Origin: Candidatus Poribacteria bacterium | GTDB lineage: Bacteria > Poribacteria > WGA-4E > PCPOR2b | Assembly (NCBI GenBank): GCA_965208675.1 | Contig: OZ242351.1 | Coordinates: forward strand, 1,376,001 to 1,440,000 | Length of the DNA stretch: 64,000 nt | Reading direction: 5' to 3' | In this document: positions 8,651 to 30,420 of the stretch, piece after piece | Position numbering within the stretch: the first letter of the stretch is position 1 | How the letters are laid out: every line of letters begins with the position of its first letter | The notes under the pieces: model-generated | The model's database searches: none | The model's input: only the letters and a program-made list of their open reading frames with translations | Told to the model about the DNA's origin: nothing | Made by a program: the position numbers and the translations under genes

Positions 8651-9460
8651 ATGACCCCAGAACAAGAGAAGGTGCACTTTCACACGTTCGGCTTCATTAT
8701 CAAGCGGAGCTTGTTCAGTGCGGAAGAGATGGAGCAGTTTTCCCGCTGGTTTGATGAAGGCTGCGACGCGGTGTGCGGACCGTTCGCAGGCGTTGGGCAG
8801 ATGGGATATCCCGGACTGAGCATTCACGCGGGATTCTGCGATCATTTCCTTGATGACCTCCGTATTATGGACAGGCTGGAAAACTTGATGGGCGAAGGGT
8901 TCCAACTCATTGCCTCAGACGCGCAGCGCCACGGCGGGAATTCGAGTTGGCACCAGGACACGGTCATCCCGATGGAAGCCGGTAAGCCGACTGAATACTT
9001 GATGCTCAAGGTGATTATGTATCTGGACGATCACAGCCAGGGTCCGGGTTGTCTCTGGCTGCTCCCGGGAACACACCGCAGGGGCTACGGCGATGCGCTG
9101 CGCGGGTTGATTACGATGGGTAATCCGAGCGACGCAGACACTTTAACGCCGGCGGGCGTGCCGCCCACGGACCTCCCCGGCGCCATCGCCACGAACACGC
9201 GCCCGGGTGACATCATCTTTTTCAACCAGAAACTTGGCCACTCCTCATGGGGCGGAATGCCAGGACGCCGATTCTTGGGGCTGACCTTCGGTGCAAAGCC
9301 GATTGAGGATTGGCAGGTTGATTGGCTCGTACATCACGGTGAACAATGGAAACATAGCTGCGCCAACGAAAGGAATTCACAGTTTCCGGATCACTTGGTA
9401 AAGTCGGCGGGAGCGCGCCGCAGAGCACTAATCGAGTTTATGCACAGCCGGGGGTATTGA
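8651..9460 (+). CDS. Phytanoyl-CoA dioxygenase (PhyH) family Fe(II)/2OG dioxygenase
   Basis: FHTFGF, WHQD, LPGTH, PGDIIFF and distal His (LGHSS). Confidence 0.88.
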   Translation: MTPEQEKVHFHTFGFIIKRSLFSAEEMEQFSRWFDEGCDAVCGPFAGVGQMGYPGLSIHAGFCDHFLDDLRIMDRLENLMGEGFQLIASDAQRHGGNSSWHQDTVIPMEAGKPTEYLMLKVIMYLDDHSQGPGCLWLLPGTHRRGYGDALRGLITMGNPSDADTLTPAGVPPTDLPGAIATNTRPGDIIFFNQKLGHSSWGGMPGRRFLGLTFGAKPIEDWQVDWLVHHGEQWKHSCANERNSQFPDHLVKSAGARRRALIEFMHSRGY

Positions 9461-9488
9461 GCGCGTCACCGGGATAAAGTGTTACAAC

Positions 9489-10268
9489 ATGACAAATAAC
9501 GATATCCCCATCAGTGATTGGCAGATTGTGCAGTACCGGCAACAAGGGTACTTCACCGTTGACGGGCTATTCACGGCTGGCGAAGTCGAATCCGTGCGAA
9601 GCGAAATTACCAAAATTGTACGGCGTTATCCGAATGGCCCCGCGGGGCTGGTGGAATTTGAGCCGTCAGTTGAGAGCGGCGAAAATGCGCCTGAAGAGGT
9701 TGAATTAAGGGTTCGAAAACTCTCCAACGTGGTACGACACAACATCTTCTTCCGAAAGCTAGCCTTCCATCCAATGATGGCAGCGGTTGCGACGGCGCTG
9801 TTGGGGCCCGACGTTGTTCTACTGCAAAGCATCATGTTGCTAAAACCGCCGCACATTGGCAGCGCAAAGGTTTGGCACCAGGACAACGCATATTTTCGAC
9901 GCGATCCAAACCATATTGCCGGCTTCTGGGTTGCTTGCGATGATGCCACAGTCGAGAACGGCTGCATGCACGTTATCCCCGGTTCGCACACACGCGGAAT
10001 CCTGGAACATGGGGGTTTCAAGAATGAATACGGCACGCTAAAAGCGCCGTCGTTTGAAGAAGCCGTAGCAGTTCCGTTGAAGGCGGGCGATGCGTTGATA
10101 TTTCACGGCGAGTTGTTGCACGGGTCGCCGCCAAATAATACCGCTGCGCGTCGGCGTTCGATGCAATACCATTACGCATCAAGCAAATGCCGCAGATCCA
10201 AAGGGTGGGAATTGTACAAAGTAAAACCCGAGGCACACGTTGCCGGGCGGGATTACGGTTATGCTTGA
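9489..10268 (+). CDS. Phytanoyl-CoA dioxygenase (PhyH) family Fe(II)/2OG dioxygenase
   Basis: KPP...WHQDNAY, ENGCMHVIPGSH, LHGSPPN and RR. Confidence 0.92.
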   Translation: MTNNDIPISDWQIVQYRQQGYFTVDGLFTAGEVESVRSEITKIVRRYPNGPAGLVEFEPSVESGENAPEEVELRVRKLSNVVRHNIFFRKLAFHPMMAAVATALLGPDVVLLQSIMLLKPPHIGSAKVWHQDNAYFRRDPNHIAGFWVACDDATVENGCMHVIPGSHTRGILEHGGFKNEYGTLKAPSFEEAVAVPLKAGDALIFHGELLHGSPPNNTAARRRSMQYHYASSKCRRSKGWELYKVKPEAHVAGRDYGYA

Positions 10269-15951: not shown

Positions 15952-15980
15952 TTGACAAGATTTCTTGACTGTGATAGAAT
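15952..15980 (+). promoter_or_regulatory. Sigma70 promoter of the 16098-28166 operon
   Basis: TTGACA-N17-TAGAAT with an extended -10 TG. Confidence 0.75.
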
Positions 15981-16097: not shown

Positions 16098-19000
16098 ATG
16101 ACTGCGAGAAACTCGTTCGTCTGTGTTATAGCATTTTTCCTGCTCACGTTGATATCCACACAGATGCTCTTGGCATCCGAAGGAGACCAATCCATCGGCC
16201 TTTCAGAAATTGCCGTTGAGATTAGGGATCGGGTGGATATCGGCAGTATGCGAAAGGACATCGCACGGCTTTCTAGCCTATCGAGCCGCGTGACGGGTTA
16301 TCCCGAAGCGGCTTCTGCCAGCAAATACATCTTCGACCGGTTTGTTGAAATTGGCTTGCAAAATGTGGAAAGCCGTGAATTCCCAATCACAGTTCCGATC
16401 GACCAAGGCGACGGTACGCTGGCGGTGCTTGATGCAGACGGAAAGGCGGTCGTGACAATCGAAATGCGATCAGTTTGGCCAAACCTCGTCCGGACCTCAC
16501 TGCTTCCCATTGGAATTAAACATGTGGTTGAAGGCGGAGAATCTTTAGAGGCAATTGCTCAATCCTACCGCGTTGACGTTCAATCCATTCTTGATGACCC
16601 ACACAATAAGTTTCTCCAAGATCAGGCGACCGATGGGCGGGACAACAACGGTGATGGAGCGGTCGATGAACCCGGGGAATTCGCGTTGATTGACGGAAAT
16701 ACAGTTTTTATACCGACCGGCGGATTAACCGCGCCGCTTTTTTACGGCGGCGGCGGCGAACTAGTTGACTTCAACGGAAAAGACATCGGCGGTTTTTGGT
16801 ACGAGGTTCAGCCCGGTGATACACTGCGAGACATTGCTCATCGCTTTCGTATCGGAGTAGGCAGCATCACCGATGATGTGCTTAACGGCCATCTTCAAAA
16901 AACCGAGGATGGTATTGATAACAACGAGGATGGCCGAATTGATGAATACGGTGAAATTCCTCTCCTCGCCGATATATTACATTGGGATACAGACGGCATT
17001 GATAACGACGCGGACGGCTTTATTGATGAGCATCCCGGCGGAGAAACGGACGGAATTGACAACAACAACGACGGCCGTGTTGACGAGGAGGGCGAGTTCA
17101 TCGCTGCTTACGAATCAAGCATATTTATACCTCGCGGCAGCGTAGTATTAATTGATTTCAACTCCAGTACCAAATGGATAAACGCAGCAATGCTCGGCGC
17201 GAAGGCTGTGGTTTTTATTGAACCGGAAACCACAATTCGCGGGGAGGCAGAGAATAAGTTCCTGACAGTCCCTGCCAACATACCGCGGTTTTGGATTTCT
17301 CGGGCAGATGCTGACACGCTGTTGGCGATGCTTGGTGAATCTTCTGACCTTACATCCTCCACCGACGAACAACAAAGGGAGGTCACGGTCCGCCTCAGCG
17401 CAACGATGACGTGGGAACGACGAATTGGGCAGAATATCCGCGGTTTCCTTGATGGCGGCGACCCAGCACTCAAGGACGAACTTGTCGTAATCACGGGGTA
17501 TTACGACTCGATGTCGGTTGTTCCTGCGATTGCGCCAGGAGCTGATCCGACTGGTGGAATTGCTGCGCTTTTCGAACTGGCGCGCATATTTAGCAAAGCA
17601 GAATTCCGGCCGGGGCGTTCGATTCTGTTCGTTGCTACAGACGCTCATTTTCAGGGGCTGGCGGGAATGCGAGCGTTCATGGAGGGGATTGGCCAAGATG
17701 TCGTGGGGCGGGAAGCTGATTCACCCGGAACGCCAACAATGCGCGGACTGCGACGAGGTTTAGCAGCAGATCTGTTTGAATTCAAAGAACTTGGCCGCAA
17801 ACTGCTGCTGTCGATTGATCGGAACGTATTGGTGGATTTGCCTCCGAATTTCTTTTACGAAGTCCATCAGCTTGACGACGCCCTCGATTCGCTCCAAATT
17901 ACATTAGGTGATCTTGAGGGGACTCGTGGCCGCGTCGAATGGCTAAGGAACGCTCAACGGGATTATAAAGAGAAACAGAAGAAGAAGCTTGAAACCACTA
18001 AAAAGCGCGAAAAGCAGGGGTTTACCCAAGAGGAGCATTCCCGCCTCGAAATTAACTTGGCTAAGTACAAAAAAGATGCTTTACAGACTACCCAATTTTT
18101 GCGATCGGTGGTCAGACGTGTGGATAATTTACGATCCCAAGCGCTGGAAGAGTCTCGAAAGGCACAGCGGGATCTGATTGAGAATATCGCGTTGCCCATG
18201 GCGCGGCTTGATGAGTGGGCGATTACGAAACTGGCGGCTGATCTGGCGGCGAAAAACATTGGCGGCAACTACGATCGAACGGCCGACAGTTCCTACCTGA
18301 AACCGAATGCGGACCAAGACGGAAACTACTACCTCCCGGTGCCATCCGACTTGATTGACACGCCATTGGCTAAAGCAGTGAATCGGCTTTCCGACCATTT
18401 AGAGGATTGGGAACTCAAAGACCGCCGAAAGTTTGCACTTCAATATGCTCAAGAACAACTCCTGGATCGGCACCTCGATTTTCACGGCTTAGAACAGATA
18501 AAAGAATCCCGGGAAATTGTACATCGCGCGACTAGAGCTTTAGGTGAATACATTGCAGAAGAGGAACAGGTCTTAAACCGCACGCTTCAAAAGATTCCTA
18601 CCGACACAGACTCCGAGTCACGCATCAAAACCGCCATTAACGGTTTACGAAGGGATGCTGCTTACGCGCCCGAGGATATTGACACGATTGTCGGCCCATT
18701 CCTTGGTGAATCCAGTCTGAACCGCTACAAGGTCATTCAAAAACAGCTTCGCCAAAAATTGGCGGAAATCGAGAGCACCGACGCCGGCGCGGTGGATCGA
18801 GAATCTCACGCCATATTCATTGAAGAACTGACTAAAGATAAACAAGCCATCTTCGAAACCGCCATGCGAAATGCCAGGCTTGAAAGGCAGCGTATCGAAT
18901 CGCTTTTGGAATTGCAACGCCACGCGTCGTTGAACCGGCCGTATCTTGAGGAAGAATTATTGGTGTTGAGCCACTACCTACCAGCCGACGAAGTTGACAC

Positions 19001-22000
19001 TGCCATAGAGGTGCGCGCCCAGATTGTCGCACAACTTGAGCAACAACGTCTGCTTCGGCTAGTTAAACAGCGTGCGAAGAATGATGTCGTTGAACTTCAG
19101 AATATGTTAAACCGCTTAGACGAACTCGACCAAGATCTTCCAGAAGAGATGAAGACGCTGCTTCGAGATAACATGCTAACGCTGCGAAACGCGAGATTCC
19201 GTAACATCCAAAAACGGGTGCAGGTGATTGCACGTATTAGCAAGTCTGAATACGACCGGAAAGTTGCCAACATTGAGCAAGCAATTGCCCTCCAAGACCT
19301 TTTCAACCGCTACTATACCTCTTTGTTTGTTTCTATCGACTTATCTACCCAAAACGACAAATTTGGCGTGTTCAACAAAGGTTGGTTCTATGACCAGCAG
19401 CCTGAATTTGTGCTGAGGCGCGAGTTTGCTTTCATCGGCAACAAACTCGCCGAGTATGCCGAGGATGTAGATTTTGGCGTCCGCATTAACAACCTTTGGA
19501 CGTTTACGGACGATCAGATTCGGCAGGCTGTGATGAACAGTCAATGGGAAATCGCATCCGGCATTGAGTCCAAACAGGCAATAGAGGGCAAGTCGTTGGA
19601 GACGCTGATTGACGAACACTACACGACGTTAGTCAAGCTTTCCGGCGTTTCGCGTTTAATGAAGATGCAGTTTGAACAGATGAGAGACCGAGGCGAGCCG
19701 TCCGAGGATATGCTCAAGGACATGGACTATATCCGCAAGGAGGTCGAGCGATTCATCCGAAACGATCAGCGCGAAGCCCGAAAAGAACGCAAAAACAGTA
19801 TTCGCCTCTTCAACCGGCTGCCTGCAATGCTTGCCCTACGGAAAGTGAAGCCGTCCGATTTGACCGAGGAGGAGATTGATGACATCAAGACCCTTATAGA
19901 CATTGTCGGCTTAGGGGGAGCTACCAACTTCGTTAACGCGATTTCAGCTTCAGGCGGCAAAACGTGGACAACTTATATTCCCGGCAAAATTGCATTTGAC
20001 AGCGAAGTTGCGACGCTCGTCGGAAAAACGGGGATTGCATTTGCCACCATTGATGATGCGCGGGTGCTTACGGACACGCCGTTGGATACGATTGATAAAA
20101 TGGATTTGAGGGAAGACGGCAATCTGCACAAACAGGCGAAAACGCTTGCGGCAATTCTTATACAGGCGATGCGCGACCCGAAGATGCCTACAGCGGCGCG
20201 CGTAGGCAACTTCTATTGCAATCTGTTTGGCGACGTTGTAGAGTATGACGCGCGCGAGAGCGCCTTGCCGAACAAACCCGTACCGCACCCAATCCTTACG
20301 CTGCGGCGCAAAAATAAAACAATGATGGGCGTTCGCGGCGATCTCTTTACTATGGGAGATAACAAAGGCGTTTTTGAAGTCGTCGGATTGGCGATGGAAG
20401 GGCGCGCCATTCAGCGGCGCGGCGGCACGCAAGAGGTAGAGGCGTATATCCTTGATTCCGATTCGGGAGATATTGTCTACGCACCAGATTTGGGCAACTT
20501 TGGTGCCGAACTACTGCCGAATAAGGTGCCTATTACCACACGCCGGCGCGGTTGCCGCATCGTGGTTTTTCCGTGCGTGTCCACCACGATTTACGACTTG
20601 GTCGACCAGCGGTATTTGCGGACACTTCGCGAATTGAACGTCTACGATGCGCTAAGCGACAGTCCTCCGGAAAAATACGGCGTGTCCAAGCCGTGGCAAC
20701 AGCCGATGGTTTCGGCGACTGAACCGATTGCATTGGTCTATTCTGAACCAAACTCCCGCATCAAAATCGGCATGGCATACGGGCAAATTGGAAAGCGGCT
20801 GCTGCTGATTAAAGCTGGCAAGAGCGGCGCCAAAAACCCGACCCTTTACACTGGGGAAGGGTTCGTCGTACAGGAAAACGGCTCTGTTCGCCTCACCCCG
20901 TACGTCGTTGTACGCGACATGTGGTGGCTTGATGAAAACCGCACCAGCCTTTACAAACGGTTCGGTATTAGCAGCGATCGCTTAGACAAACTCCACCTAT
21001 TTTCGAACGAACATCTGGAACAGGCGGAAGTTGCTTTGGATAAAAAGGACTATTCCATGGCGATGAAGCTCGCGCGCGGGGCATGGGGTTACGAATCGCG
21101 TGCGTATCCAGATGTTAAAAAGACCGGCAATGATGTGGTTAACGGTGTTATGTTCTATCTCGCACTGCTAATTCCCTTTGCCTACTTTATGGAACGCCTA
21201 ATTTTCGCATTTCCGGATGTTCACAAACAGATTCTTGGTGTATTCGCCATCTTTCTCGTAGTGTTCTTTTTCCTTTCACAAGCACATCCAGCCTTCCAGA
21301 TTACCACGACGCCGGTTATTATCCTAATTGCCTTCGTTGTGTTAGCATTAACTGTGATCGTGATTAGCATCATCGTCCGGAAGTTTGAGGAGCAGTTAGA
21401 ACAGATTAAGCAGGAACGCTCAAAGGTTTATAAAGCGGATGTTGGCCGCCTTGCCGCTTCCGCTGCTGCATTTAGCCTTGGCATCTCCAATATGCGCAAG
21501 CGGAAAGGCCGCACTCTCCTTACATGCGCCACGCTGGTAATTTTAACATTCACGGTAATCTCCTTCACATCGGTTCGAACCTTTATGCAACCCAACAGCA
21601 CCTCTTTGCCTTCTGTAACGCCCCAATACACGGGCATGTTGATTCGTGACCAATACTGGATTCCATTGGAGGAACCGGTGATTACGTCGGTAACGAACGA
21701 TATGCGAAAAACACGGATTGGCGAAAATGAACTCCGGGTGCTGTTGAAAAAGAAAGGAAAATCGCCCGATGAAATTGACTCGCTGCTTGCCTCGGCTAAA
21801 ATTGACATGGATCATGGTACTCGGGTAGAGGACATGTCCTCGACTCCTACCAGCGGGTTGAAGGATCAAGCGTATATCACGGTGCACAATGTTGTCGCGC
21901 CGCGGGCGTGGTATCAGTCTTCGGGTACCGGCGATCAGTCGTTCGTACAGTTGACGCGTATTGAAAATCCCAAGGATCCTGTGCCGCCGAAAGATCCATT

Positions 22001-23525
22001 GACCGATGAACCGCTAAGTTTTGCGGCAAACATGCTGGTGGGAATGAGCCCTCAGGAACCGGGTGTCACTGGTATTGACCGTTACCTGCAGTACGGCAAA
22101 TGGTTTACCCCTGCAGACGAAGCGGAATGGCCGACCCAATGGCCGTATGCATGCGTATTGCCAAAAGGTATGGCAGACCTCTTGGAAATCAGCGAATCTG
22201 ATATGGGGAATGCCACCATCTCAGTTTATGGCGCAAAATTCACTGTCACCGGTGTTCTGGGCATTGGGTTTAAGGATTTAACAGACAATGACGGCGAAGA
22301 ACTCACCCCTGTCGATTATCAATTGATGCATCAGCAACAATCGCGCGGGGGCGAGGGGGAAGAAACGCTTGAGGGCGAGTTGCAGAAGTATCTCCACCTT
22401 ACGCCGGATAGCATCGCTATTTTGCCATACGAGGTGATAATCAATCAAGGCGGAACACTGCGATCAGTCGCGGTCAATATGAACCCTCAAGAAGGCGATC
22501 CGCCGTTCCTAACCGGCGTTGATAAGCTAGATTTAATCATGGCGCCCCTAATGAGCCGCATTGCACTCGACTTTTTCGTCGGTCGGAACAAAGATACTTA
22601 CCTCTACAGCTCAATTGGGATGACTTCCTTCTCCGGAATGGGCAACTTATTTGTGCCAATACTTATCGCATCACTAATCGTACTGAACACAATGCTCGGC
22701 GCCGTGTATGAAAGAGTTCGGGAAATTGGTATTTACAGTTCCGTCGGGCTAGCGCCGGTGCATATAGCTTTTCTGTTTCTCGCAGAGGCGTGCGTGTACG
22801 CGATTGTGGGGGCAGTGTTGGGTTACCTACTCGGTCAAGTCGTGGCTACTCTCCTAGTGAATTTCGGCTGGCTTGCCGGATTGACCCTTAATTACTCATC
22901 AATGTCCACAGTGGTGGCAACCATTATCGTTATGCTAGTGGTCATCAGCAGCACACTCTACCCCGCTGTTAAAGCCGGACGGATGGCTGTTCCCGACATT
23001 GAACGGAAGTGGAAATTACCTGAACCGGAAGGCGACGAGTGGCACTTTGACCTTCCCTTCACAGTTCTATCCGAGGAATCACTTGGCTTGAACGTCTTTA
23101 TGCGGGACTATTTTGAAGCCCACTCCGACGAATCTGCGAGCGATTTCTATACTGACCAAATCTCTTTTAACCGGTCAACCGAGGAGATTGAAGGCAGGGA
23201 AAAAGAAACGTACGCGATTAGCATGATGGCTTGGGTAGCGCCTTACGATTTAGGGGTCGGTCAATCCATTCGATTTGTGACTTCCCCGGTTGGCGGAGAA
23301 GAGGAAGATCTCTACAACATCACCCTTGATGTGCACCGTGAAAGCGGCGAAATTGCCTCTTGGAAACGCGTCAACCGGCGTTTCTTAAACCTAATTCGTA
23401 AGCAACTGTTGGTCTGGCGAACGTTCAGCGCCGAGGTTCGCGGCGAGTTTCACGAACGCGGCCGTCACGACCGCCAATTCACTGATGCTCCTAACCTTGA
23501 ACTAGCACCACAGCCGGCTGACTGA
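16098..23525 (+). CDS. Giant fusion: signal peptide, degenerate M28 peptidase fold with PA domain, two LysM domains, Asp-rich repeats, long helical inserts, beta-sandwich, MacB/FtsX-like ABC permease
   Basis: SRVTGYPEAASASKYI (M28 N-terminus); HVVEGGESLEAIA and YEVQPGDTLRDIA (LysM); VVITGYYDS...APGAD (M28); NMRKRKGRTLLT and IVLNTMLGAVYERVREIGIYSSVG (MacB/FtsX). Confidence 0.85.
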   Translation: MTARNSFVCVIAFFLLTLISTQMLLASEGDQSIGLSEIAVEIRDRVDIGSMRKDIARLSSLSSRVTGYPEAASASKYIFDRFVEIGLQNVESREFPITVPIDQGDGTLAVLDADGKAVVTIEMRSVWPNLVRTSLLPIGIKHVVEGGESLEAIAQSYRVDVQSILDDPHNKFLQDQATDGRDNNGDGAVDEPGEFALIDGNTVFIPTGGLTAPLFYGGGGELVDFNGKDIGGFWYEVQPGDTLRDIAHRFRIGVGSITDDVLNGHLQKTEDGIDNNEDGRIDEYGEIPLLADILHWDTDGIDNDADGFIDEHPGGETDGIDNNNDGRVDEEGEFIAAYESSIFIPRGSVVLIDFNSSTKWINAAMLGAKAVVFIEPETTIRGEAENKFLTVPANIPRFWISRADADTLLAMLGESSDLTSSTDEQQREVTVRLSATMTWERRIGQNIRGFLDGGDPALKDELVVITGYYDSMSVVPAIAPGADPTGGIAALFELARIFSKAEFRPGRSILFVATDAHFQGLAGMRAFMEGIGQDVVGREADSPGTPTMRGLRRGLAADLFEFKELGRKLLLSIDRNVLVDLPPNFFYEVHQLDDALDSLQITLGDLEGTRGRVEWLRNAQRDYKEKQKKKLETTKKREKQGFTQEEHSRLEINLAKYKKDALQTTQFLRSVVRRVDNLRSQALEESRKAQRDLIENIALPMARLDEWAITKLAADLAAKNIGGNYDRTADSSYLKPNADQDGNYYLPVPSDLIDTPLAKAVNRLSDHLEDWELKDRRKFALQYAQEQLLDRHLDFHGLEQIKESREIVHRATRALGEYIAEEEQVLNRTLQKIPTDTDSESRIKTAINGLRRDAAYAPEDIDTIVGPFLGESSLNRYKVIQKQLRQKLAEIESTDAGAVDRESHAIFIEELTKDKQAIFETAMRNARLERQRIESLLELQRHASLNRPYLEEELLVLSHYLPADEVDTAIEVRAQIVAQLEQQRLLRLVKQRAKNDVVELQNMLNRLDELDQDLPEEMKTLLRDNMLTLRNARFRNIQKRVQVIARISKSEYDRKVANIEQAIALQDLFNRYYTSLFVSIDLSTQNDKFGVFNKGWFYDQQPEFVLRREFAFIGNKLAEYAEDVDFGVRINNLWTFTDDQIRQAVMNSQWEIASGIESKQAIEGKSLETLIDEHYTTLVKLSGVSRLMKMQFEQMRDRGEPSEDMLKDMDYIRKEVERFIRNDQREARKERKNSIRLFNRLPAMLALRKVKPSDLTEEEIDDIKTLIDIVGLGGATNFVNAISASGGKTWTTYIPGKIAFDSEVATLVGKTGIAFATIDDARVLTDTPLDTIDKMDLREDGNLHKQAKTLAAILIQAMRDPKMPTAARVGNFYCNLFGDVVEYDARESALPNKPVPHPILTLRRKNKTMMGVRGDLFTMGDNKGVFEVVGLAMEGRAIQRRGGTQEVEAYILDSDSGDIVYAPDLGNFGAELLPNKVPITTRRRGCRIVVFPCVSTTIYDLVDQRYLRTLRELNVYDALSDSPPEKYGVSKPWQQPMVSATEPIALVYSEPNSRIKIGMAYGQIGKRLLLIKAGKSGAKNPTLYTGEGFVVQENGSVRLTPYVVVRDMWWLDENRTSLYKRFGISSDRLDKLHLFSNEHLEQAEVALDKKDYSMAMKLARGAWGYESRAYPDVKKTGNDVVNGVMFYLALLIPFAYFMERLIFAFPDVHKQILGVFAIFLVVFFFLSQAHPAFQITTTPVIILIAFVVLALTVIVISIIVRKFEEQLEQIKQERSKVYKADVGRLAASAAAFSLGISNMRKRKGRTLLTCATLVILTFTVISFTSVRTFMQPNSTSLPSVTPQYTGMLIRDQYWIPLEEPVITSVTNDMRKTRIGENELRVLLKKKGKSPDEIDSLLASAKIDMDHGTRVEDMSSTPTSGLKDQAYITVHNVVAPRAWYQSSGTGDQSFVQLTRIENPKDPVPPKDPLTDEPLSFAANMLVGMSPQEPGVTGIDRYLQYGKWFTPADEAEWPTQWPYACVLPKGMADLLEISESDMGNATISVYGAKFTVTGVLGIGFKDLTDNDGEELTPVDYQLMHQQQSRGGEGEETLEGELQKYLHLTPDSIAILPYEVIINQGGTLRSVAVNMNPQEGDPPFLTGVDKLDLIMAPLMSRIALDFFVGRNKDTYLYSSIGMTSFSGMGNLFVPILIASLIVLNTMLGAVYERVREIGIYSSVGLAPVHIAFLFLAEACVYAIVGAVLGYLLGQVVATLLVNFGWLAGLTLNYSSMSTVVATIIVMLVVISSTLYPAVKAGRMAVPDIERKWKLPEPEGDEWHFDLPFTVLSEESLGLNVFMRDYFEAHSDESASDFYTDQISFNRSTEEIEGREKETYAISMMAWVAPYDLGVGQSIRFVTSPVGGEEEDLYNITLDVHRESGEIASWKRVNRRFLNLIRKQLLVWRTFSAEVRGEFHERGRHDRQFTDAPNLELAPQPAD
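16632..17087 (+). repeat. Four in-frame DGxDN(N/D)xDGxxDE putative metal/Ca-binding repeats
   Basis: DGRDNNGDGAVDE (16632-16670), DGIDNNEDGRIDE (16908-16946), DGIDNDADGFIDE (16992-17030) and DGIDNNNDGRVDE (17049-17087). Confidence 0.9.
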
Positions 23526-23876: not shown

Positions 23877-25865
23877 TTGGCGAGAGAGAGAATATCGCAA
23901 GCCGAGGAGTGGCAGGCTTGGGCGCAGCGTTACGATATGGAGGGCGGGATTCGGACATTTGAATCCGGTTTAACCCTCAAAGTCGTTCTAGGGGCCCTTT
24001 TTGTGGGGCTGTTGATGATGCCGGGCTCAATCTACTTGCAGTTAGTGTCAGGCCAAACGGGTGCAGGCGCCGCACCGTGGGTAGCGGTCATTCTATTTAC
24101 GGAATTGGCGCGCCGCTCATTTACGACAGCCAGACGACAGGAGCTATTCTTACTGCTTGGACTTACTGGTGCAGCGGTCGGATCTGGACTTCAGTACCGC
24201 GGCTTCATCTGGTACGCCTATTTTGTGCAAACGCCTCAAGCGGAGTCCTATGAAATCGCCGACAAGATTCCTTTTTGGGTTGCGCCATCACCGGATTCGA
24301 TTGCAATCGCAGAAAGATCGCTCTTGCACATGGATTGGTGGACGCCTATTTGGATCTTTTTGGTCATGCGGCTGCTTGGTACAATTCGACATATCAGCGC
24401 AGGTTATTTTTTGTTCCGGCTCACTGCTGACCTAGAACGACTTCCGTATCCACTGGCGCCTATTGAAGCACAAGGCGCGACCGCTCTAGCAGAGACCACA
24501 GGCAGGGCGGAAACGTGGCGTTGGCGTGTGTTTTCTATCGGTTCCATGGCGGGGTTACTGTGGGGTTTTCTATATATCGGTATTCCTTCACTTACTGGCG
24601 TGATGATGTCAGAGCCGATTGAGATTCTAAAAATCCCATTTATTGATTTTACCCCTAGTATTGAAGGATTTGCTCCGACAGGAGTGTTTGCGCTCTCCAC
24701 CGATTTTGGACAAATTCTCTTTGGGTTTGTGCTGCCATTTCCAATCGTGATGACTGAATTCATCGCGGCAATGTTTACCCAGTTTTTCCTGAATCCGCAA
24801 CTTTACCAACATGAAATATTGTATCAATGGCGTGCAGGTTTGGATGTCCGCGGCGTAGGATTGTTCAATGGCTTGGATTTCTGGATTAGCGCCAATATGG
24901 GTAAAGCTTTCAGCTTCGCAGTCGTCGGCCTTGCTGCATCTGTTCCCATGCTTATGAAATTTCGATCTGCGAGACAGGAAACTACCGGTACGCGCGGGTC
25001 GCTCCAAACGCCGCCGGGGCGCGGAGATTTTCCGCTCTGGCTAATGGCGGGGTTGTGGCTTATCGGCATGATTGGTTTTGTGTGGATGGTGCATTGGATG
25101 GTACCGAATTTTCCGATGAAATTTTTGCTGGGCTTTGCTTTTATATACACTCCGCTAAATTCCTACGTCACTGCGCGGACATTTGGGGTATTGGGGCGCG
25201 ATCTCTTTGAAATCCCCTATATCCACGAGACAACCTTTATCTTGAGCCGTTACGAGGAAATCGACATTTGGTTCGTTGAATTACCAAATGAGGACTACGG
25301 CCGCGGCACACAAGGTTGGCGCGTGTGCGAACTGACGGGAACTACGTTTACAAGTAACATTGCAGCCCATCTATTGATTATGCCGATTCTACTAATTTCC
25401 GGAATTCTCGTATGGCATTTCATTTGGAAAATCGCGCCAATTCCTTCAGCGCAATATCCTTTCGCTCAAACTTGGTGGCCAATCTACGCAACCAACGAAT
25501 GTCTGTGGAAGACCTCGCTTCGCGATGGAAGCAGTCAGATGTTGCAGGCCATCCGAGGCGACTACGTTGCGACCGGATTTACCGGTTCGCTTGCTATCTA
25601 CGGCATCCTCTGGTTAGCGAAGATGCCTAGCATGTGGTTTTACGGCATCGTGGGTGGTATCGGCGCCGACCCAGGTATGATGATACCAAGACTAATCGGT
25701 GCAATAATAGGCCGATTTTATATGATTAAACGATTCGGCTTGAAACGGTGGTTTATGTTCAATCCAGTTTTGGCAGCCGGCTTTACATGCGGTGTTGGCC
25801 TCATCGGAATGGGAACTGTGGCTATTGCACTGGTATCCAAAGCAGTCATTGTTAAACCGTTCTGA
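23877..25865 (+). CDS. OPT-superfamily-like peptide transporter
   Basis: 662 aa with many TMs; GLTLKVVLGALF, RQEL, DLERLPYPLAP and PIPSAQYP; TTG start with SD AAGGAG. Confidence 0.75.
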   Translation: MARERISQAEEWQAWAQRYDMEGGIRTFESGLTLKVVLGALFVGLLMMPGSIYLQLVSGQTGAGAAPWVAVILFTELARRSFTTARRQELFLLLGLTGAAVGSGLQYRGFIWYAYFVQTPQAESYEIADKIPFWVAPSPDSIAIAERSLLHMDWWTPIWIFLVMRLLGTIRHISAGYFLFRLTADLERLPYPLAPIEAQGATALAETTGRAETWRWRVFSIGSMAGLLWGFLYIGIPSLTGVMMSEPIEILKIPFIDFTPSIEGFAPTGVFALSTDFGQILFGFVLPFPIVMTEFIAAMFTQFFLNPQLYQHEILYQWRAGLDVRGVGLFNGLDFWISANMGKAFSFAVVGLAASVPMLMKFRSARQETTGTRGSLQTPPGRGDFPLWLMAGLWLIGMIGFVWMVHWMVPNFPMKFLLGFAFIYTPLNSYVTARTFGVLGRDLFEIPYIHETTFILSRYEEIDIWFVELPNEDYGRGTQGWRVCELTGTTFTSNIAAHLLIMPILLISGILVWHFIWKIAPIPSAQYPFAQTWWPIYATNECLWKTSLRDGSSQMLQAIRGDYVATGFTGSLAIYGILWLAKMPSMWFYGIVGGIGADPGMMIPRLIGAIIGRFYMIKRFGLKRWFMFNPVLAAGFTCGVGLIGMGTVAIALVSKAVIVKPF

Positions 25866-25978: not shown

Positions 25979-26911
25979 ATGGAATGGACAAATTTTGGTT
26001 GGGCGGGTATCACTTTAGAAATTCCAGCGAACTGGGAGTTGAGTGGATTATCTGGTGACGAGAAAAAGGGGTATTTGCGGTTAGACGATGAGACGACACC
26101 GCGTCTAGAGTTAAAATGGTCTGAATCGAAGCAGAAAAAACCAGACCTGCATCGCGTCCTTGACGAATATTTTAAACTTATCCGTAAGAATTTTAAGCGT
26201 ACAGAGGCTAAACTTCATATTCAGCGGAATGTCAATCTCATCAAAGATGAATCCTTCCTTGACGGCAGAGACGCGGTATTCTTTAGTTGGAAGGGAAGTT
26301 ACCGAGCAAATGGTGTAATCTGCCACTGTCACACGTGCAAACGAATAACAATTGTCCAGGTGATGGGACATCTCAAGGAAAACCTCCGTACGACATCCGT
26401 GCGAATCTTGAGTTCGCTTCACGATCATCCGGCTGGGCCGACGCCCCTGTGGACCGCATACCAACTCAACGTTGAAGTGCCGCGCCGATACCGCCTTGAA
26501 AAACATCAATTCCTGTCCGGATATCTGTTAATGTCTTTCGTTGATGGCAGCCGCAAGCTTTCAATTGAACGATATGGACTAGCGGATATTACTCTCAAAG
26601 AGAGTGATTTGGAATCTTGGTTTCGAGCCAAGTATACCAAGGCTATTCGAGGATATGGCTTCAAAATGGAGTCTATCCAATCTGACGATGGAGATGAGCG
26701 GTTTACGTGTATTGGCGAACGCACACGTCTGACCGATCACGTACCGTTTGCACCTGTATTATTTATTGACAAAATTTTGCGGCGGCAGACCTTTGCCGCT
26801 CACATTCGGCATTGTTACGAGTCCAATCGCATCTATGTTTTACAAGCAGTCGCCAAGCGCGACGCAGTTAAGACTGTGGATGGGGTTGCGGCAAGCATTC
26901 GATGTCACTAG
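25979..26911 (+). CDS. Uncharacterized cytoplasmic protein with an internal duplication
   Basis: Halves begin FGWAGITLEIPANWEL and LWTAYQLNVEVPRRYRL, and end CHCHTCKRITIVQ and RHCYESNRIYVLQ. Confidence 0.75.
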   Translation: MEWTNFGWAGITLEIPANWELSGLSGDEKKGYLRLDDETTPRLELKWSESKQKKPDLHRVLDEYFKLIRKNFKRTEAKLHIQRNVNLIKDESFLDGRDAVFFSWKGSYRANGVICHCHTCKRITIVQVMGHLKENLRTTSVRILSSLHDHPAGPTPLWTAYQLNVEVPRRYRLEKHQFLSGYLLMSFVDGSRKLSIERYGLADITLKESDLESWFRAKYTKAIRGYGFKMESIQSDDGDERFTCIGERTRLTDHVPFAPVLFIDKILRRQTFAAHIRHCYESNRIYVLQAVAKRDAVKTVDGVAASIRCH

Positions 26912-26930: not shown

Positions 26931-27350
26931 ATGATTAATACCATTCTTTACAAACTCCGACTAAAAAAACGACCAGATTCGGAATTTGACCGGGAGCGTA
27001 TCTTAAACGCATTACCGCTTCGAAACCAATTAATCAAATGGGAAGTTGATGACAAAGAGGAGGTTTCACTTGTCATTCCCCAGCAGCAGAAACTATGGAT
27101 TCGGATAGCTTCCAGGATTTTTTCCTTGCCTGACAAACGCGTGATTGTTTTGGATGATGTCGGGTCTTATGTGTGGCGTCTATGCGACGGAAATAACTCG
27201 ATTAGCCAAATTGTAAAACACCTTAGTAAACAATACCGTATGACACGAAAAGAAGCTGAAACGTCGCTTTTCACCTTTATGCGGCAGTTGGGCAAACGAA
27301 ACATAATTGGATTTGCTGTTTCCAAAAAACCAAAAGGAGGGGAGAAGTAG
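26931..27350 (+). CDS. PqqD family / RiPP recognition element (RRE) protein
   Basis: VLDDVGSYVWRLCDGNNSISQIVKHL...LFTFMRQLGKRNII winged-helix pattern. Confidence 0.85.
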   Translation: MINTILYKLRLKKRPDSEFDRERILNALPLRNQLIKWEVDDKEEVSLVIPQQQKLWIRIASRIFSLPDKRVIVLDDVGSYVWRLCDGNNSISQIVKHLSKQYRMTRKEAETSLFTFMRQLGKRNIIGFAVSKKPKGGEK

Positions 27351-28166
27351 ATGGCAGAACCCGATGCGATTGATGCAAATAGTGGTGATGTTCCTGCCGA
27401 AACGACTGCCCGAGCTACGCGGCAGTTGCCGAAGGAAAACACCGTGCGCGTCAGGAATTTGATTAAAAGATATGAGATGGGTTCGAGTATCGTCGGTGCG
27501 TTGCAAGGCGTTAATTTCGAAATTCGCCGCGGCGAATACATATCGATTATTGGCCCCTCCGGAAGCGGAAAATCCACGCTTTTTAACATGATTGGGGGGT
27601 TGGATAAACCGACGGAAGGCAGGGTGTATATTGATGAGGTGGATATTGCGCAGTTAGATGCATATGAGCTTGCATGGCTTCGTTGCCGCAAAATCGGTTA
27701 CATATTTCAATCGTTTAATTTAATTCCTGTGATGACTGCCTTGGAAAATGTCTCCCTACCAATGATATTTGGAGGTATGACCGCCGATGACAGCCGCCAA
27801 AAGGGTGCGGACTTGCTTACACTGGTGGGGTTAGGCGACCGGATACAGCATAAACCGCTTGAACTCTCCGGTGGACAGCAACAGCGCGTTGCCGTTGCGC
27901 GCTCTCTTGCTAACGATCCGGCAATTGTGCTTGCGGACGAGCCGACAGGCAATCTTGATACCCATACAGGCCTGGAGATTATCGCCCTTCTAAAACAGTT
28001 GAACGAAGAAAACGGTGTGACAATCATCACTGCTACCCATGATACAAAGATGCTTGACGTATCGGACCGAATTTTCTATATGGCTGACGGCAAAGTTGAA
28101 AAGATTGAGACCCGCGACGAAATTGATCTGCAGGTCGGTCGGCTGGACGGTCAGGAAGTTGGGTAG
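27351..28166 (+). CDS. ABC transporter ATP-binding protein (MacB/LolD/FtsE type)
   Basis: GPSGSGKST, IGYIFQSFNL, LSGGQQQRV, ADEPTGNLD and ATHD; its ATG directly follows the PqqD stop (TAGATG). Confidence 0.95.
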   Translation: MAEPDAIDANSGDVPAETTARATRQLPKENTVRVRNLIKRYEMGSSIVGALQGVNFEIRRGEYISIIGPSGSGKSTLFNMIGGLDKPTEGRVYIDEVDIAQLDAYELAWLRCRKIGYIFQSFNLIPVMTALENVSLPMIFGGMTADDSRQKGADLLTLVGLGDRIQHKPLELSGGQQQRVAVARSLANDPAIVLADEPTGNLDTHTGLEIIALLKQLNEENGVTIITATHDTKMLDVSDRIFYMADGKVEKIETRDEIDLQVGRLDGQEVG

Positions 28167-28998
28167 GTTTTGCTCTATCACCAAATGTTGGAGTAAAACA
28201 ATTTGAAGAAAGGCCACACAGTGATACAGGCACAGGTATAGCACAAATTCTGACGAGAAAATAGTTTCAGGTTATACTCATAGCCAATTATTCGTCCGCG
28301 AACTATTGTCCCTTCCCTATCTCAATTTCGCAAGCCGTTAGCCGTTTTTCTTTTTCCCTCCAATTATTCGTGCTGATTTACCTTACACCGTAAATGAAGA
28401 GAAATGCCTTCAAGTTGAGTTGGACACCTGCCAGTCTCACTCAAGATGTCATTCTCTCCTTGCCGATAAATGGTGTAATGAGCAAAAATCTAGTAGCCTG
28501 ACAAATCGCATGTCCAAGAGCATGATTGAATAATAGGTGGCGAGGTGAAATTTTGCCTTTTGAATTGTAACATTCGGTGAAAATTCTATCGCGCTCCACA
28601 TTCGGTCGCTTAATCCAACTTTGGGGCTTTTGATTAAGGGGTAATTGGCGTTTCCATTTACCGTTCGCACTTCTAGGGTTTTGCTTTAACAGCTTGAATA
28701 AAAGCTGATGGCAGAATAATGTTTTTGTCATTTGTGGGACCAAATCATTGGATATTCAAGACACGTAATATCGAATATTCTCCCCCGAAGACAGTTTCGA
28801 ACTTTTCAAACAATTTGCATTAAAAGCCAGTTCATCAACCACAAATATCGGTTGCATTTCAGGCTCGAATTGTGAGATAATGTCCAATAGAACTGCATTG
28901 ATAATGTTTTTTTTGCAAGGCTTACCCGTTAACAAATTTTGAATTCAATTCTGGAATATACGGCTTATACTTAGAAAACCAAATGGAGGAAATTTACG

Positions 28999-30420
28999 AT
29001 GAGAATGCACATTGGCGGAGAGTGGGTTGATAGACCGCAGAAGATAGATGTGTTGAACCCTTTTGACAACTCGGTTGTCGACACGATTCCGAAATCAAAC
29101 CTCAACGATGTTGAAAATGCGATTGAAACCGCAGTGCGCGGTGCAAAAGCCATGGCGAAGCTGACCGGCTACGAGCGGTACGAAATTCTTCACAAAGCCT
29201 CAGAACTGATGGCGGAACGCGCGGAAGATTTAGGCCGCACGATTACATTAGAAGAAGGCAAGATTATCGCTGAAGGGCGAATGGAAGCTAGCCGTGCTGC
29301 CGAGATTATAGCGCTTTCGGCTGAAGAAGCCAAACGGCTGGGCGGCGAGGTTGTTCCGCTCGAAGGTGCACCAGGTGCTCACGGCAAGTTCGGATTTACT
29401 GTGCGCGTACCGTGCGGCGTCGTTGTAGGCATAAGTCCATTCAACTTTCCGCTTCACCTCGTCTGTCATAAGGTCGGACCTGCATTGGCAGCAGGAAACG
29501 CCATTATCGTTAAACCAGCCACTGATACACCGCTGTCGGCGCTCAAGCTCGTTGAGATTCTATTAGAGGCTGGCGCACCGCCAGAAGCGATTCAGTGTTT
29601 GACAGGCCAGGGCGGAGATATTGGAGATGCGCTATGTGCAGATCGACGCGTTCGAAAGATTACCTTCACTGGCAGCCGTGATATCGGCGAACATATTTGC
29701 CACGTTGCCGGGCTTAAACGGGTAACGATGGAGTTGGGTTCAAACTCGCCGCTCATTGTTATGCCTGATGCGGATCCGGAGAAGGTCGCCAAAGCTGCGA
29801 CGGCATCCGGATTCTCAAATGCCGGTCAGGTCTGCATCTCGACACAGCGAGTTATCGCTCACGAGAAGATTTACGGAGACTTTCTGGATGCTTTTAAAAC
29901 GACAGTTGAAGGAATCACTACTGGAGATCCGCTTGATGAGCCCACACGGATGGGACCGATGATCCGCGAGACTGATGCCATCCGAGTGGATCAATGGGTC
30001 GAGGAAGCTCTCGGTGACGGTGCTGAACTGATTGCAGGCGGGGGAAGGAACGGTCAGATTTATAATCCCACAGTTGTCGCCAACGTTAAACCGGAGATGA
30101 AAATTTCGTGCGACGAAATCTTTGGACCGGTTGTTGGAGTAACCCCCGCAGCTAGTATCGATGATGCCATTGCGTTAGCCAACGACACGAACTATGGGTT
30201 GAGTGCGGCGATATGCACCCAAAACATCGACTGGGCGATGAAGTTCGTGCGCGAGGTAGAGTCGGGTAACCTGATGGTGAATTGGGGAACCCAGTGGAGG
30301 GCCGACTTGATGCCGTATGGAGGGCTAAAAGAGAGCGGAATGGGCAAAGAAGGACCCAAGTACGCAGTGGAGGAAATGACAGAGCTGAAGATGGCAGTCT
30401 TCCATCTAAATGATACGTAG
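28999..30420 (+). CDS. NAD(P)-dependent aldehyde dehydrogenase
   Basis: SPFNFP, FTGS, MELGSN, NAGQVCIS, EIFGP and PYGGLKESG. Confidence 0.92.
   Translation: MRMHIGGEWVDRPQKIDVLNPFDNSVVDTIPKSNLNDVENAIETAVRGAKAMAKLTGYERYEILHKASELMAERAEDLGRTITLEEGKIIAEGRMEASRAAEIIALSAEEAKRLGGEVVPLEGAPGAHGKFGFTVRVPCGVVVGISPFNFPLHLVCHKVGPALAAGNAIIVKPATDTPLSALKLVEILLEAGAPPEAIQCLTGQGGDIGDALCADRRVRKITFTGSRDIGEHICHVAGLKRVTMELGSNSPLIVMPDADPEKVAKAATASGFSNAGQVCISTQRVIAHEKIYGDFLDAFKTTVEGITTGDPLDEPTRMGPMIRETDAIRVDQWVEEALGDGAELIAGGGRNGQIYNPTVVANVKPEMKISCDEIFGPVVGVTPAASIDDAIALANDTNYGLSAAICTQNIDWAMKFVREVESGNLMVNWGTQWRADLMPYGGLKESGMGKEGPKYAVEEMTELKMAVFHLNDT

Follow-up and report, generated by a model that had tools for sequence, protein, structure and literature searches.

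An M28-like domain with a conserved non-canonical site as the predicted periplasmic head of a MacB/FtsX-type permease in Poribacteria

The locus considered here raises the question of what an M28 peptidase fold does in a large membrane protein once most of the residues expected to hold its two zinc ions have been replaced. It lies in a 64,000-nt stretch of DNA from a Candidatus Poribacteria bacterium (the window, numbered from its first letter), in which a single plus-strand open reading frame (ORF), P0001 (16098-23525, 2475 aa; residue numbers refer to this ORF), contains all of the motifs in question. A preliminary description of this DNA had proposed that the M28 domain has lost its zinc ligands, that it resembles nicastrin and nicalin, and that it is probably a binding receptor rather than a protease. 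In silico analysis of P0001 and its homologues indicates that residues 35 to approximately 1400 represent a protease-associated (PA) plus M28 ectodomain which, as judged from sequence, is unable to build the canonical di-zinc site, and that this M28-like domain is the predicted periplasmic head of a MacB/FtsX-type permease of the ATP-binding cassette (ABC) group called type VII. P0001 is a member of this group with a head not described for it in the literature searched, in which no account of an M28-like head fused to an FtsX-type permease was found.

The M28 assignment exceeds chance. Pfam Peptidase_M28 matches residues 447-529 with an E-value of 3.1e-7 (30.8 bits against a cut-off of 21.3, covering profile positions 2-78 of 193 only), a phmmer search of P0001 against the PDB retrieved AAP, the Aeromonas/Vibrio aminopeptidase, at 7.7e-8 to 1e-6, and structural comparison with AAP gave a Z-score of 16.2 for a model of P0001 itself and of 27.8 for a model of a homologue. 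The domain is encoded in pieces on the plus strand. Segment 1 (16200-16505, residues ~35-136) comprises an N-terminal helix and strands, aligns with the N-termini of compact homologues and is paired by the family profile with residues 7-99 of 2ek8, and it is followed by the PA domain core (17133-17417, residues 346-440), where conservation within the family is highest. Segment 2 (17418-17708, residues 441-537) carries Tyr468 (17499-17501), Asp470, Asp483/Pro484 (17544-17549) and His517-Phe518 (17646-17651); segment 3 (19311-19472, residues 1072-1125) carries Asp1081 (19338-19340) and the invariant Tyr1098; and segment 4 (19899-20297, residues 1268 to ~1400) carries Glu1303, Asp1320, Arg1322, Asp1326 (20073-20075) and Asp1330.

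The motif coordinates of the preliminary description proved exact, with GYYD at 17496-17507 (residues 467-470), GADPT from 17538, DAHFQGLAGM from 17640, FDS from 19995 and TDTPLD from 20070. HMMER alignments to solved enzymes place Tyr468 at the position of AAP His97, His517 at that of the catalytic Glu151 and Phe518 at that of Glu152, while Asp99 is kept as Asp470; in a low-scoring second aligned stretch His256 corresponds to Asp1326, the family having 'lvDtPfD' where BSAP/YwaD has 'wyHTPeD', and the ligand Asp179 is retained as the invariant Asp1081 in 'FVSIDLS' (19326-19346). As a control on the alignment, H, D, D, E and E fell in the same columns in 8/8 canonical M20/M28 proteins. The position of the bridging Asp is taken by Pro484 in the AAP alignment and by Asp483 in the alignments to 2ek8 and the control proteins; the stretch from GA to the next helix is one residue shorter than canonical, and the choice between the two depends on the alignment register. 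In the subfamily which keeps 'AHYDS' (17 of the 98 representatives described below) the 484 position, the canonical ligand register, holds an acidic residue in 14/17 members, which favours the Pro484 reading. In place of the five ligands His, Asp, Glu, Asp and His the domain therefore presents Tyr468, Asp483 or Pro484, Phe518, the retained Asp1081 and Asp1326, with His517 in place of the general-base Glu that adjoins the ligand Glu. With these replacements the canonical two-zinc site cannot form, one or two of the five ligands remaining, and P0001 would thus contain an M28-fold domain that fails the catalytic definition of family M28. The claimed loss of the zinc ligands holds for three or four of the five, and extends to the general base, but not for Asp1081, the Asp179 equivalent; SDH, reported as changed to FDS, is not known to be a metal-ligand motif. 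The zinc ligands of glutaminyl cyclases correspond to the Asp117/Glu152/His256 set; a single-zinc site of this type was considered and set aside, the Glu152 and His256 positions being replaced here.

The substituted residues have been conserved in homologues and have not decayed, as established in three sets of sequences. In 118 aligned full-length (>2200 aa) homologues from Poribacteria, Y468, D470, P484, H517, F518 and D1081 are invariant (118/118), position 483 holds D in 116 sequences and E in the other 2, and position 1326 holds D in 117, with one gap. A HMMER search with residues 30-620 against 1.84 billion representatives returned 3311 matches at E<=1e-3, 377 of these at E<=1e-30; the best 150 of the 3311 are mostly proteins of 1450-1800 aa, and a Pfam scan of 18 of these 150 identified FtsX in 16/18 and Peptidase_M28 in 15/18. 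Retaining proteins of at least 1300 aa that match the N-half profile, P0001 included, and dropping shorter ones (mostly fragments) together with 5/150 that were unmatched, left 98 representatives. Among these the His97 position is Y in 69, H in 17 and another residue in 12, the Asp99 position is D in all 98, the 483 column is E in 55, D in 17 and another residue in 26, and the Glu151 position is H in 93, Y in 2, T in 2, K in 1 and Glu in none, so that the canonical Glu-Glu pair occurs in 0/98. The Glu152 position is by comparison very mixed (F 37, H 13, Y 12, G 10, N 8, C 7, W 6, and others), the Asp179 position is D in 52 of the 53 representatives aligned there, and the His256 position is D in 60 of 77 aligned, being otherwise G, N, K, S or others. 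The third set, a 46-sequence alignment (A2) of Poribacteria, Armatimonadota, Firestonebacteria and Desantisbacteria in which 19 rows are non-Poribacteria, shows D470, H517, D1081, Y1098, W1290, E1303, D1320, R1322, D1326, P1328 and Q1346 to be invariant and, in the PA domain, 22 columns of at least 95% identity between G347 and R397; mean column identity in the family alignment is approximately 40%. This strict conservation across phyla indicates that the altered site is old and under selection, only the Glu152 position appearing free, and the free variation at that position argues against a conserved second metal site.

The remainder of P0001 identifies the protein to which the M28-like domain is attached. 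In order, the ORF specifies a signal-anchor transmembrane (TM) helix, the PA and M28-like ectodomain with its inserts, three TM helices, a MacB/FtsX-type four-TM module and a presumably cytoplasmic tail. A hydropathy scan located the N-terminal signal-anchor helix at residues 7-25, followed by approximately 1650 residues that contain no hydrophobic helix, then three helices at 1680-1759, one at 1808-1826, a further stretch of approximately 360 residues without helices, three more helices at approximately 2185-2287 and a tail of approximately 175 aa, giving a total of eight predicted TM helices together with the FtsX module. The FtsX C-terminal domain is matched by Pfam at residues 2186-2296 (E 5.6e-12), and the MacB periplasmic core domain (MacB_PCD) weakly at 1.6e-3, under the cut-off in P0001 and above it in homologues, where values reach 6.2e-10; the other Pfam matches are two partial LysM domains and a weak PA domain at residues 345-408 (E 5.3e-4, under cut-off), while NCBIfam yielded partial MacB/LolC/ADOP matches. 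P0001 accordingly has both marks of a type VII permease, the FtsX domain and a four-TM unit whose TM1 and TM2 are separated by a large periplasmic domain, and a cognate ATPase of the LolD/MacB/FtsE/DevA type is encoded nearby (27351-28166, plus strand; Pfam ABC_tran 3.2e-34), its best models being LolD (1.1e-69), MacB NBD (nucleotide-binding domain; 5.8e-64), YbbA, DevA and FtsE (9.9e-62), with the LolD, MacB and FtsE values all under the NCBIfam equivalog cut-offs. From the Pfam and hydropathy layout it follows that the M28-like region forms the head of a MacB/FtsX-type permease on its outer, periplasmic side. The domain is an ectodomain fused to a membrane machine; that this machine is a MacB/FtsX-type ABC permease had not been recognized.

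The other parts of the ORF, all on the plus strand, are a strand-rich and helical membrane-proximal domain of no assigned family (20298-21134, residues ~1401-1679), to which no Pfam model was matched and whose equivalent in the modelled Armatimonadota homologue L110 consists of strands at 528-724 and helices at 761-842; the three hydrophobic helices that precede the FtsX module (21135-21374, residues ~1680-1759); the MacB/FtsX-type module itself (21519-22985), with TM1 at 1808-1826, the MacB-like periplasmic core domain and the FtsX C-terminal domain; and the C-terminal tail (22986-23525), which by hydropathy is presumably cytoplasmic and for which no family match was obtained. Upstream of the gene a promoter-like site (15952-15980, plus strand) combines TTGACA and TAGAAT at a spacing of 17 nt with a TG element; as a consensus match only, it scores 11/12 and is the top of 24 such sites.

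Two structure models bear on the origin of the head. Model 1 covers residues 330-1420 of P0001 and was built from a 46-row alignment (mean predicted local distance difference test score, pLDDT, 76.5; predicted template modelling score, pTM, 0.53); in it the pieces before and after the inserts join into one M28 fold, with an AAP match spanning model residues 112-1033. Model 2 is the complete, insert-free 849-aa ectodomain of the compact homologue L110 (pLDDT 78.5, pTM 0.83). In VIA-align comparisons Model 2 matched AAP with Z 27.8 (root-mean-square deviation, rmsd, 2.7 over 270/291 residues), 2ek8 with 27.7, BSAP with 27.2, TfR with 27.2 and GCPII with 27.0, and Foldseek ranked 2ek8 (2.3e-25), BSAP (9e-24), 3iib (4.4e-22) and TfR (1.3e-21) highest. 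A Foldseek-independent search of Model 2 against 48,161 representatives agreed, with 2ek8 at 27.7, AAP at 27.6, TfR at 27.2, fungal and Legionella leucine aminopeptidases at approximately 26.5, GCPII at 24.4, glutaminyl cyclases at 23-24 and M20 proteins at 17-21. Neither nicalin nor nicastrin occurs among the 50 VIA-align matches listed for Model 2 (rank 50, Z 25.3), the 48 Foldseek matches, or the 50 matches listed from the 48,161 representatives (rank 50, Z 16.7). Profile searches of the PDB gave a similar order: profile A1 retrieved BSAP/YwaD at 9.7e-12, AAP at 7e-10, nicalin at 2.3e-7 and nicastrin at 0.011, and profile A3, which covers the whole compact ectodomain, retrieved 2ek8 at 1e-22, BSAP at 8.8e-17, AAP at approximately 1e-9, TfR at 4e-9 and nicalin at 6e-9, with no nicastrin match at E<=1.

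These comparisons do not sustain a kinship to nicastrin and nicalin, the active bacterial aminopeptidases ranking first by A1, A3 and Model 2. It is very improbable that the domain is a prokaryotic relative or forerunner of either protein, sharing a specific ancestry with it. Such a view can draw on weak matches that centre on YDS...PGA(D/E), among them nicalin at 9.4e-4 in a single-sequence search with P0001, on an analogous architecture in which an M28-like ectodomain sits on a membrane machine, and on Model 1, with which VIA-align placed nicalin nominally first (Z 18.4, rmsd 5.5, 309 aligned), ahead of 3iib (17.6), BSAP (17.5), 2ek8 (16.5), AAP (16.2; rmsd 3.0, 209 aligned), TfR (15.5), GCPII (14.6) and nicastrin (14.3). 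By the rule of the tool, however, nicalin is tied with 3iib and BSAP, lying within 1 Z of both at a higher rmsd, and Foldseek with the same model put TfR1 at the top (3.6e-4), followed by BSAP, 2ek8 and GCPII, with nicalin at rank 15 (3.4e-3). In addition, 2ek8 and BSAP score far better by profile, a bacterial FtsX module takes the place of the membrane partner here, and the shared motif is a general M28 motif, so that the likeness noted earlier is real but generic. Bacterial PA-aminopeptidases being the better match by profile and, among the matches listed, by Model 2, nicastrin and nicalin were rejected as specific relatives, and the suggestion of a prokaryotic parallel is retained only in so far as a membrane complex would, as with TfR, be served by an ectodomain of peptidase fold. 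The domain descends from, or is sister to, the bacterial PA-domain aminopeptidases.

In Poribacteria the fold is interrupted by lineage-specific inserts. Insert a (16506-16712, plus strand, residues 137-205) contains a first LysM match and one acidic DGxDNNxDGxxDE repeat, and insert b (16788-17132, plus strand, residues 231-345) a second LysM match and three such repeats; this block is missing from 10/10 aligned compact homologues. Each LysM (16506-17132) matches only the first 24-25 of 43 Pfam profile positions, and the four acidic repeats resemble calcium-binding loops placed within the LysM fold or behind it. Inserts 1 (17709-19310, residues 538-1071; long helices) and 2 (19473-19898, residues 1126-1267; helical), both on the plus strand and Poribacteria-specific, together add approximately 680 aa that split the M28 fold and are modelled by AlphaFold as long helices with pLDDT mostly of 82-94. 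The 19 non-Poribacteria rows of A2 show more than 80% gaps over 538-562, 577-698, 703-879 and 888-1071 of insert 1, and the compact homologues possess an ordinary, unbroken PA-M28 domain with the motifs of the N- and C-terminal halves approximately 100 residues apart. By analogy, the helical inserts may recall the coiled coils of FtsEX partners.

Downstream of P0001 and on the same strand, the ATPase gene is preceded by three further genes, encoding p662 (23877-25865), a 662-aa polytopic membrane protein and distant OPT/DUF6785-like putative transporter; p310 (25979-26911), a 310-aa soluble protein of unknown family that is conserved in the cluster; and a PqqD-like protein (26931-27350) with the peptide-chaperone fold (Pfam PqqD 4e-12, all NCBIfam PqqD-type models being under their cut-offs). 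The window p662 has no Pfam or NCBIfam match of its own; its protein-language-model neighbours (0.97-0.98) are clusters labelled 'peptide transporter', with OPT present in 15-33% of their members, and of eight p662 homologues one matches OPT, at a value (1.2e-5) that falls slightly short of the cut-off. When GTDB species genomes were scanned by pattern, 414 loci with relatives emerged, of which 80 were retained, 42 from Poribacteria or close relatives and 38 mostly from Armatimonadota, with Firestonebacteria, Desantisbacteria and others. The full cluster of the large gene, p662, p310, PqqD-like protein and ATPase is present at 24/80 loci, 15 of them outside Poribacteria, and many other loci end too early. 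The large gene is found in 174/176 Poribacteria genomes (132/133 of those of high quality) and, at E<=1e-30, in 123/151 sampled genomes of Armatimonadota, the phylum of L110, because of which we consider that it probably serves a core envelope function of both phyla. Two or three paralogues, of approximately 2470 aa and 2560 aa, occur in many Poribacteria genomes (G018-G028 among them), the longer type being without a p662 match in the approximately 4 kb downstream.

At 3/3 loci scanned outside Poribacteria (L110:18597-19319, L104:11823-12428, L122:2832-3503) the PqqD-like and ATPase genes are separated by a second, small gene of FtsX type (201-240 aa), which suggests a hetero-dimeric permease there; in the window no such gene occurs between 27350 and 27351 or in 28166-28999. 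At two of the three loci a DUF6785+DUF6784 (OPT-related) gene directly precedes the large gene (L104:2132-4120, Firestonebacteria; L122:4571-6592, Desantisbacteria), and the clusters of these two groups therefore hold two OPT-like proteins. In Firestonebacteria the cluster is directly followed by genes for a PilZ-domain protein and a GAF-GGDEF diguanylate cyclase (L104:13173-14795), neighbours that may link it to control by c-di-GMP (cyclic di-GMP). Pfam families of the HlyD adaptor and of outer-membrane ducts were absent from the 16 window neighbours and from 23 ORFs of L110, L104 and L122, these being the neighbourhoods scanned, and a tripartite efflux pump of the MacAB-TolC type was rejected on account of this absence. 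A biosynthetic cluster for a ribosomally synthesized and post-translationally modified peptide (RiPP), as the PqqD-like gene might imply, was set aside because no modifying enzyme such as a radical SAM protein is among the scanned neighbours and because the phylum carries these genes almost universally; no search was made for a precursor-peptide gene. Elsewhere in the window, a gene with DUF3857 and a transglutaminase-like core (31053-32918) lies a few kb downstream, outside the cluster, and two adjoining PhyH-type dioxygenase genes (8651-10268), followed by genes for a rhamnose mutarotase, a short-chain dehydrogenase, an HpcH/HpaI aldolase and an amidohydrolase, form a block that looks like sugar-acid or deoxy-sugar catabolism.

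As to function, the pair of possibilities offered in the preliminary description, a binding receptor or rewired chemistry using the new histidine, appears still to be the right one for a membrane-attached ectodomain with no canonical site and conserved residues. The most likely reading, to which we give an even chance, is that the former active site and the PA domain bind a ligand, without classical di-zinc hydrolysis, as parts of the non-canonical head of an ATP-driven envelope machine. In type VII ABC systems the ATPase would drive long-range movements of the TM helices and periplasmic core domain, not transport through the membrane (PMC5985334, PMC7668044, PMC12646458); such mechanotransmission is described for MacB, LolCDE and FtsEX, and for MacB relatives in PMC5985334. 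From family membership we infer that ATP-driven mechanotransmission would by analogy reach the head: ATP binding and hydrolysis by the cytoplasmic ATPase would shift the TM helices and the periplasmic core domain, and this movement would reposition or open the M28-like head. A ligand would be held by Tyr468, Asp470, Asp483, His517, Asp1081, Glu1303, Asp1320, Arg1322 and Asp1326 together with the PA domain, and would, in view of the OPT-like and PqqD-like partners and of the LysM inserts, most likely be a peptide or an envelope component that bears one. In Poribacteria the head would be anchored to peptidoglycan by the LysM and acidic-repeat inserts and lengthened by the long helical ones. A further step, that the cluster represents an undescribed class of ATP-powered envelope machine whose re-wired aminopeptidase-fold head, with an Asp/Tyr-rich site and His for the catalytic Glu, cleaves peptides or hands them over, gated by ATP, to the OPT-like partners, with the PqqD-like protein as a cytoplasmic binder, is speculative and in our estimation rather unlikely.

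Several observations weigh against the binding head. The conserved Tyr/His, Asp/Glu, His, Asp and Asp could bind one or two metals, and strict conservation fits catalysis as well as it does binding; the former-ligand loops of Model 1 have pLDDT below 50 (model 142-154, 189-191, 992-1001); the idea of a peptide ligand derives from weak neighbour annotation, namely p662 and the PqqD-like protein; and 10/42 Poribacteria loci (L064, L065, L069, L071, L072, L076, L077, L079, L080 and L082), apparently paralogues, are without a p662 match in the approximately 4 kb downstream. Sponge metagenomes of 11 studies contain DNA nearly identical to that of the gene, there being no RNA run among the runs listed. 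The main rival is a rewired hydrolase, in which His517 would act as general base with harder metals, one or two in number (Mn, Fe, Ca or a lone Zn), at Asp483/Asp1081/Asp1326 with Tyr468, the activity being gated by the ABC motor and serving, for example, to trim peptides for the OPT-like partner. The closest relatives are active aminopeptidases, His517 is nearly invariant (93/98 representatives and 46/46 in A2), seven polar residues (Asp470, Asp1081, Tyr1098, Glu1303, Asp1320, Arg1322 and Asp1326) are unchanged across the phyla of A2, and the members that retain 'AHYDS' with an acidic residue in the ligand register indicate that part of the metal site survives in some of the family. An E151H mutant of AAP was reportedly the subject of work by Bzymek in 2005, cited in PMC3426542. 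The PDB title of 2anp reads 'Functional Glutamate 151 to Histidine mutant' of the same enzyme, according to which His there is compatible with catalysis in a laboratory mutant; nearly all of the family carries this replacement. Against such a hydrolase stand the hypervariable Glu152 position, the His97 and 483 positions that are not fixed across the family, the His256 equivalent that departs from Asp in 17 of 77 sequences, and the complete absence from the 98 representatives of Glu at the 517 position and of the Glu-Glu pair, and we regard it as possible though doubtful. That the M28 fold is only an inert spacer, lacking a ligand site and serving just as scaffold or block for dimerisation, is suggested by the scaffold role of TfR-type M28 domains, to which Model 2 is close, and by the tolerance of large lineage-specific inserts; the invariance across phyla of former active-site and family-specific polar residues, against a mean column identity so much lower, makes this quite unlikely.

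MacB, LolCDE, FtsEX and YbbAP each run a distinct envelope process, and the P0001 family would add to them a type VII ABC system with a peptidase-fold head and a conserved non-canonical site, in two poorly studied phyla of which one is a major group of sponge symbionts. The family moreover offers a natural series for the remodelling of a di-zinc site, some members keeping His97 and the canonical Asp and nearly all having exchanged Glu151 for His. Were the ATP-powered peptide machine to prove true, it would be an independent bacterial functional counterpart of the principle seen in nicastrin and nicalin, that of a pseudo-aminopeptidase serving as substrate receptor. A near-universal, uncharacterised ABC-driven machine is of more interest than the original claim of a nicastrin/nicalin likeness, which is weak.

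Among known systems, 2ek8 from Aneurinibacillus and BSAP/YwaD from B. subtilis (6hc6) share with the P0001 family the same fold and the same arrangement of PA within M28, and AAP (1amp/1rtq) is the PA-less prototype of that M28 fold. In common with these bacterial aminopeptidases P0001 keeps the equivalents of Asp99 and Asp179, whereas other residues stand in place of His97, Glu151, Glu152 and His256 and the bridging Asp is ambiguous; in contrast to the free, secreted enzymes its head is fused to a membrane permease and, in this lineage, bears four large inserts. TfR is a non-catalytic receptor built on the M28 fold, and TfR1 and GCPII resemble P0001 in presenting a membrane-anchored PA and M28 ectodomain followed by a further domain, but theirs is a single-pass anchor instead of a fusion to an ABC permease, and sequence similarity is lower (TfR 4e-9). 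Nicalin, in the BOS complex, and nicastrin, in gamma-secretase, likewise attach to a membrane complex an ectodomain of M28-like fold whose ligands are altered, yet their partners (presenilin/APH-1/PEN-2 or TMEM147/NOMO) and membrane topology, a single-pass anchor as against eight predicted TM helices with an FtsX module, are different and they are no closer to P0001 than the active enzymes by profile or in the matches listed for Model 2. With MacB, LolCDE, FtsEX-EnvC and YbbAP, P0001 shares an FtsX-type four-TM module in which TM1 and TM2 flank a periplasmic core domain, and an ATPase of the LolD/FtsE type that is separate from it. The peptidase fold of EnvC is degenerate. FtsEX acts on EnvC as a peptidase-fold, coiled-coil partner, according to PMC7668044, and as in other type VII ABC systems no substrate channel would be expected in P0001, only mechanotransmission as set out in PMC5985334. 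In contrast to FtsEX-EnvC, the peptidase-fold module of P0001 is of the M28 and not the LytM type and is fused N-terminally to the permease, behind four extra TM helices, and as compared to known type VII ABC systems its cluster has no adaptor or outer-membrane duct gene in the scanned neighbourhoods and adds OPT-like, PqqD-like and unknown proteins.

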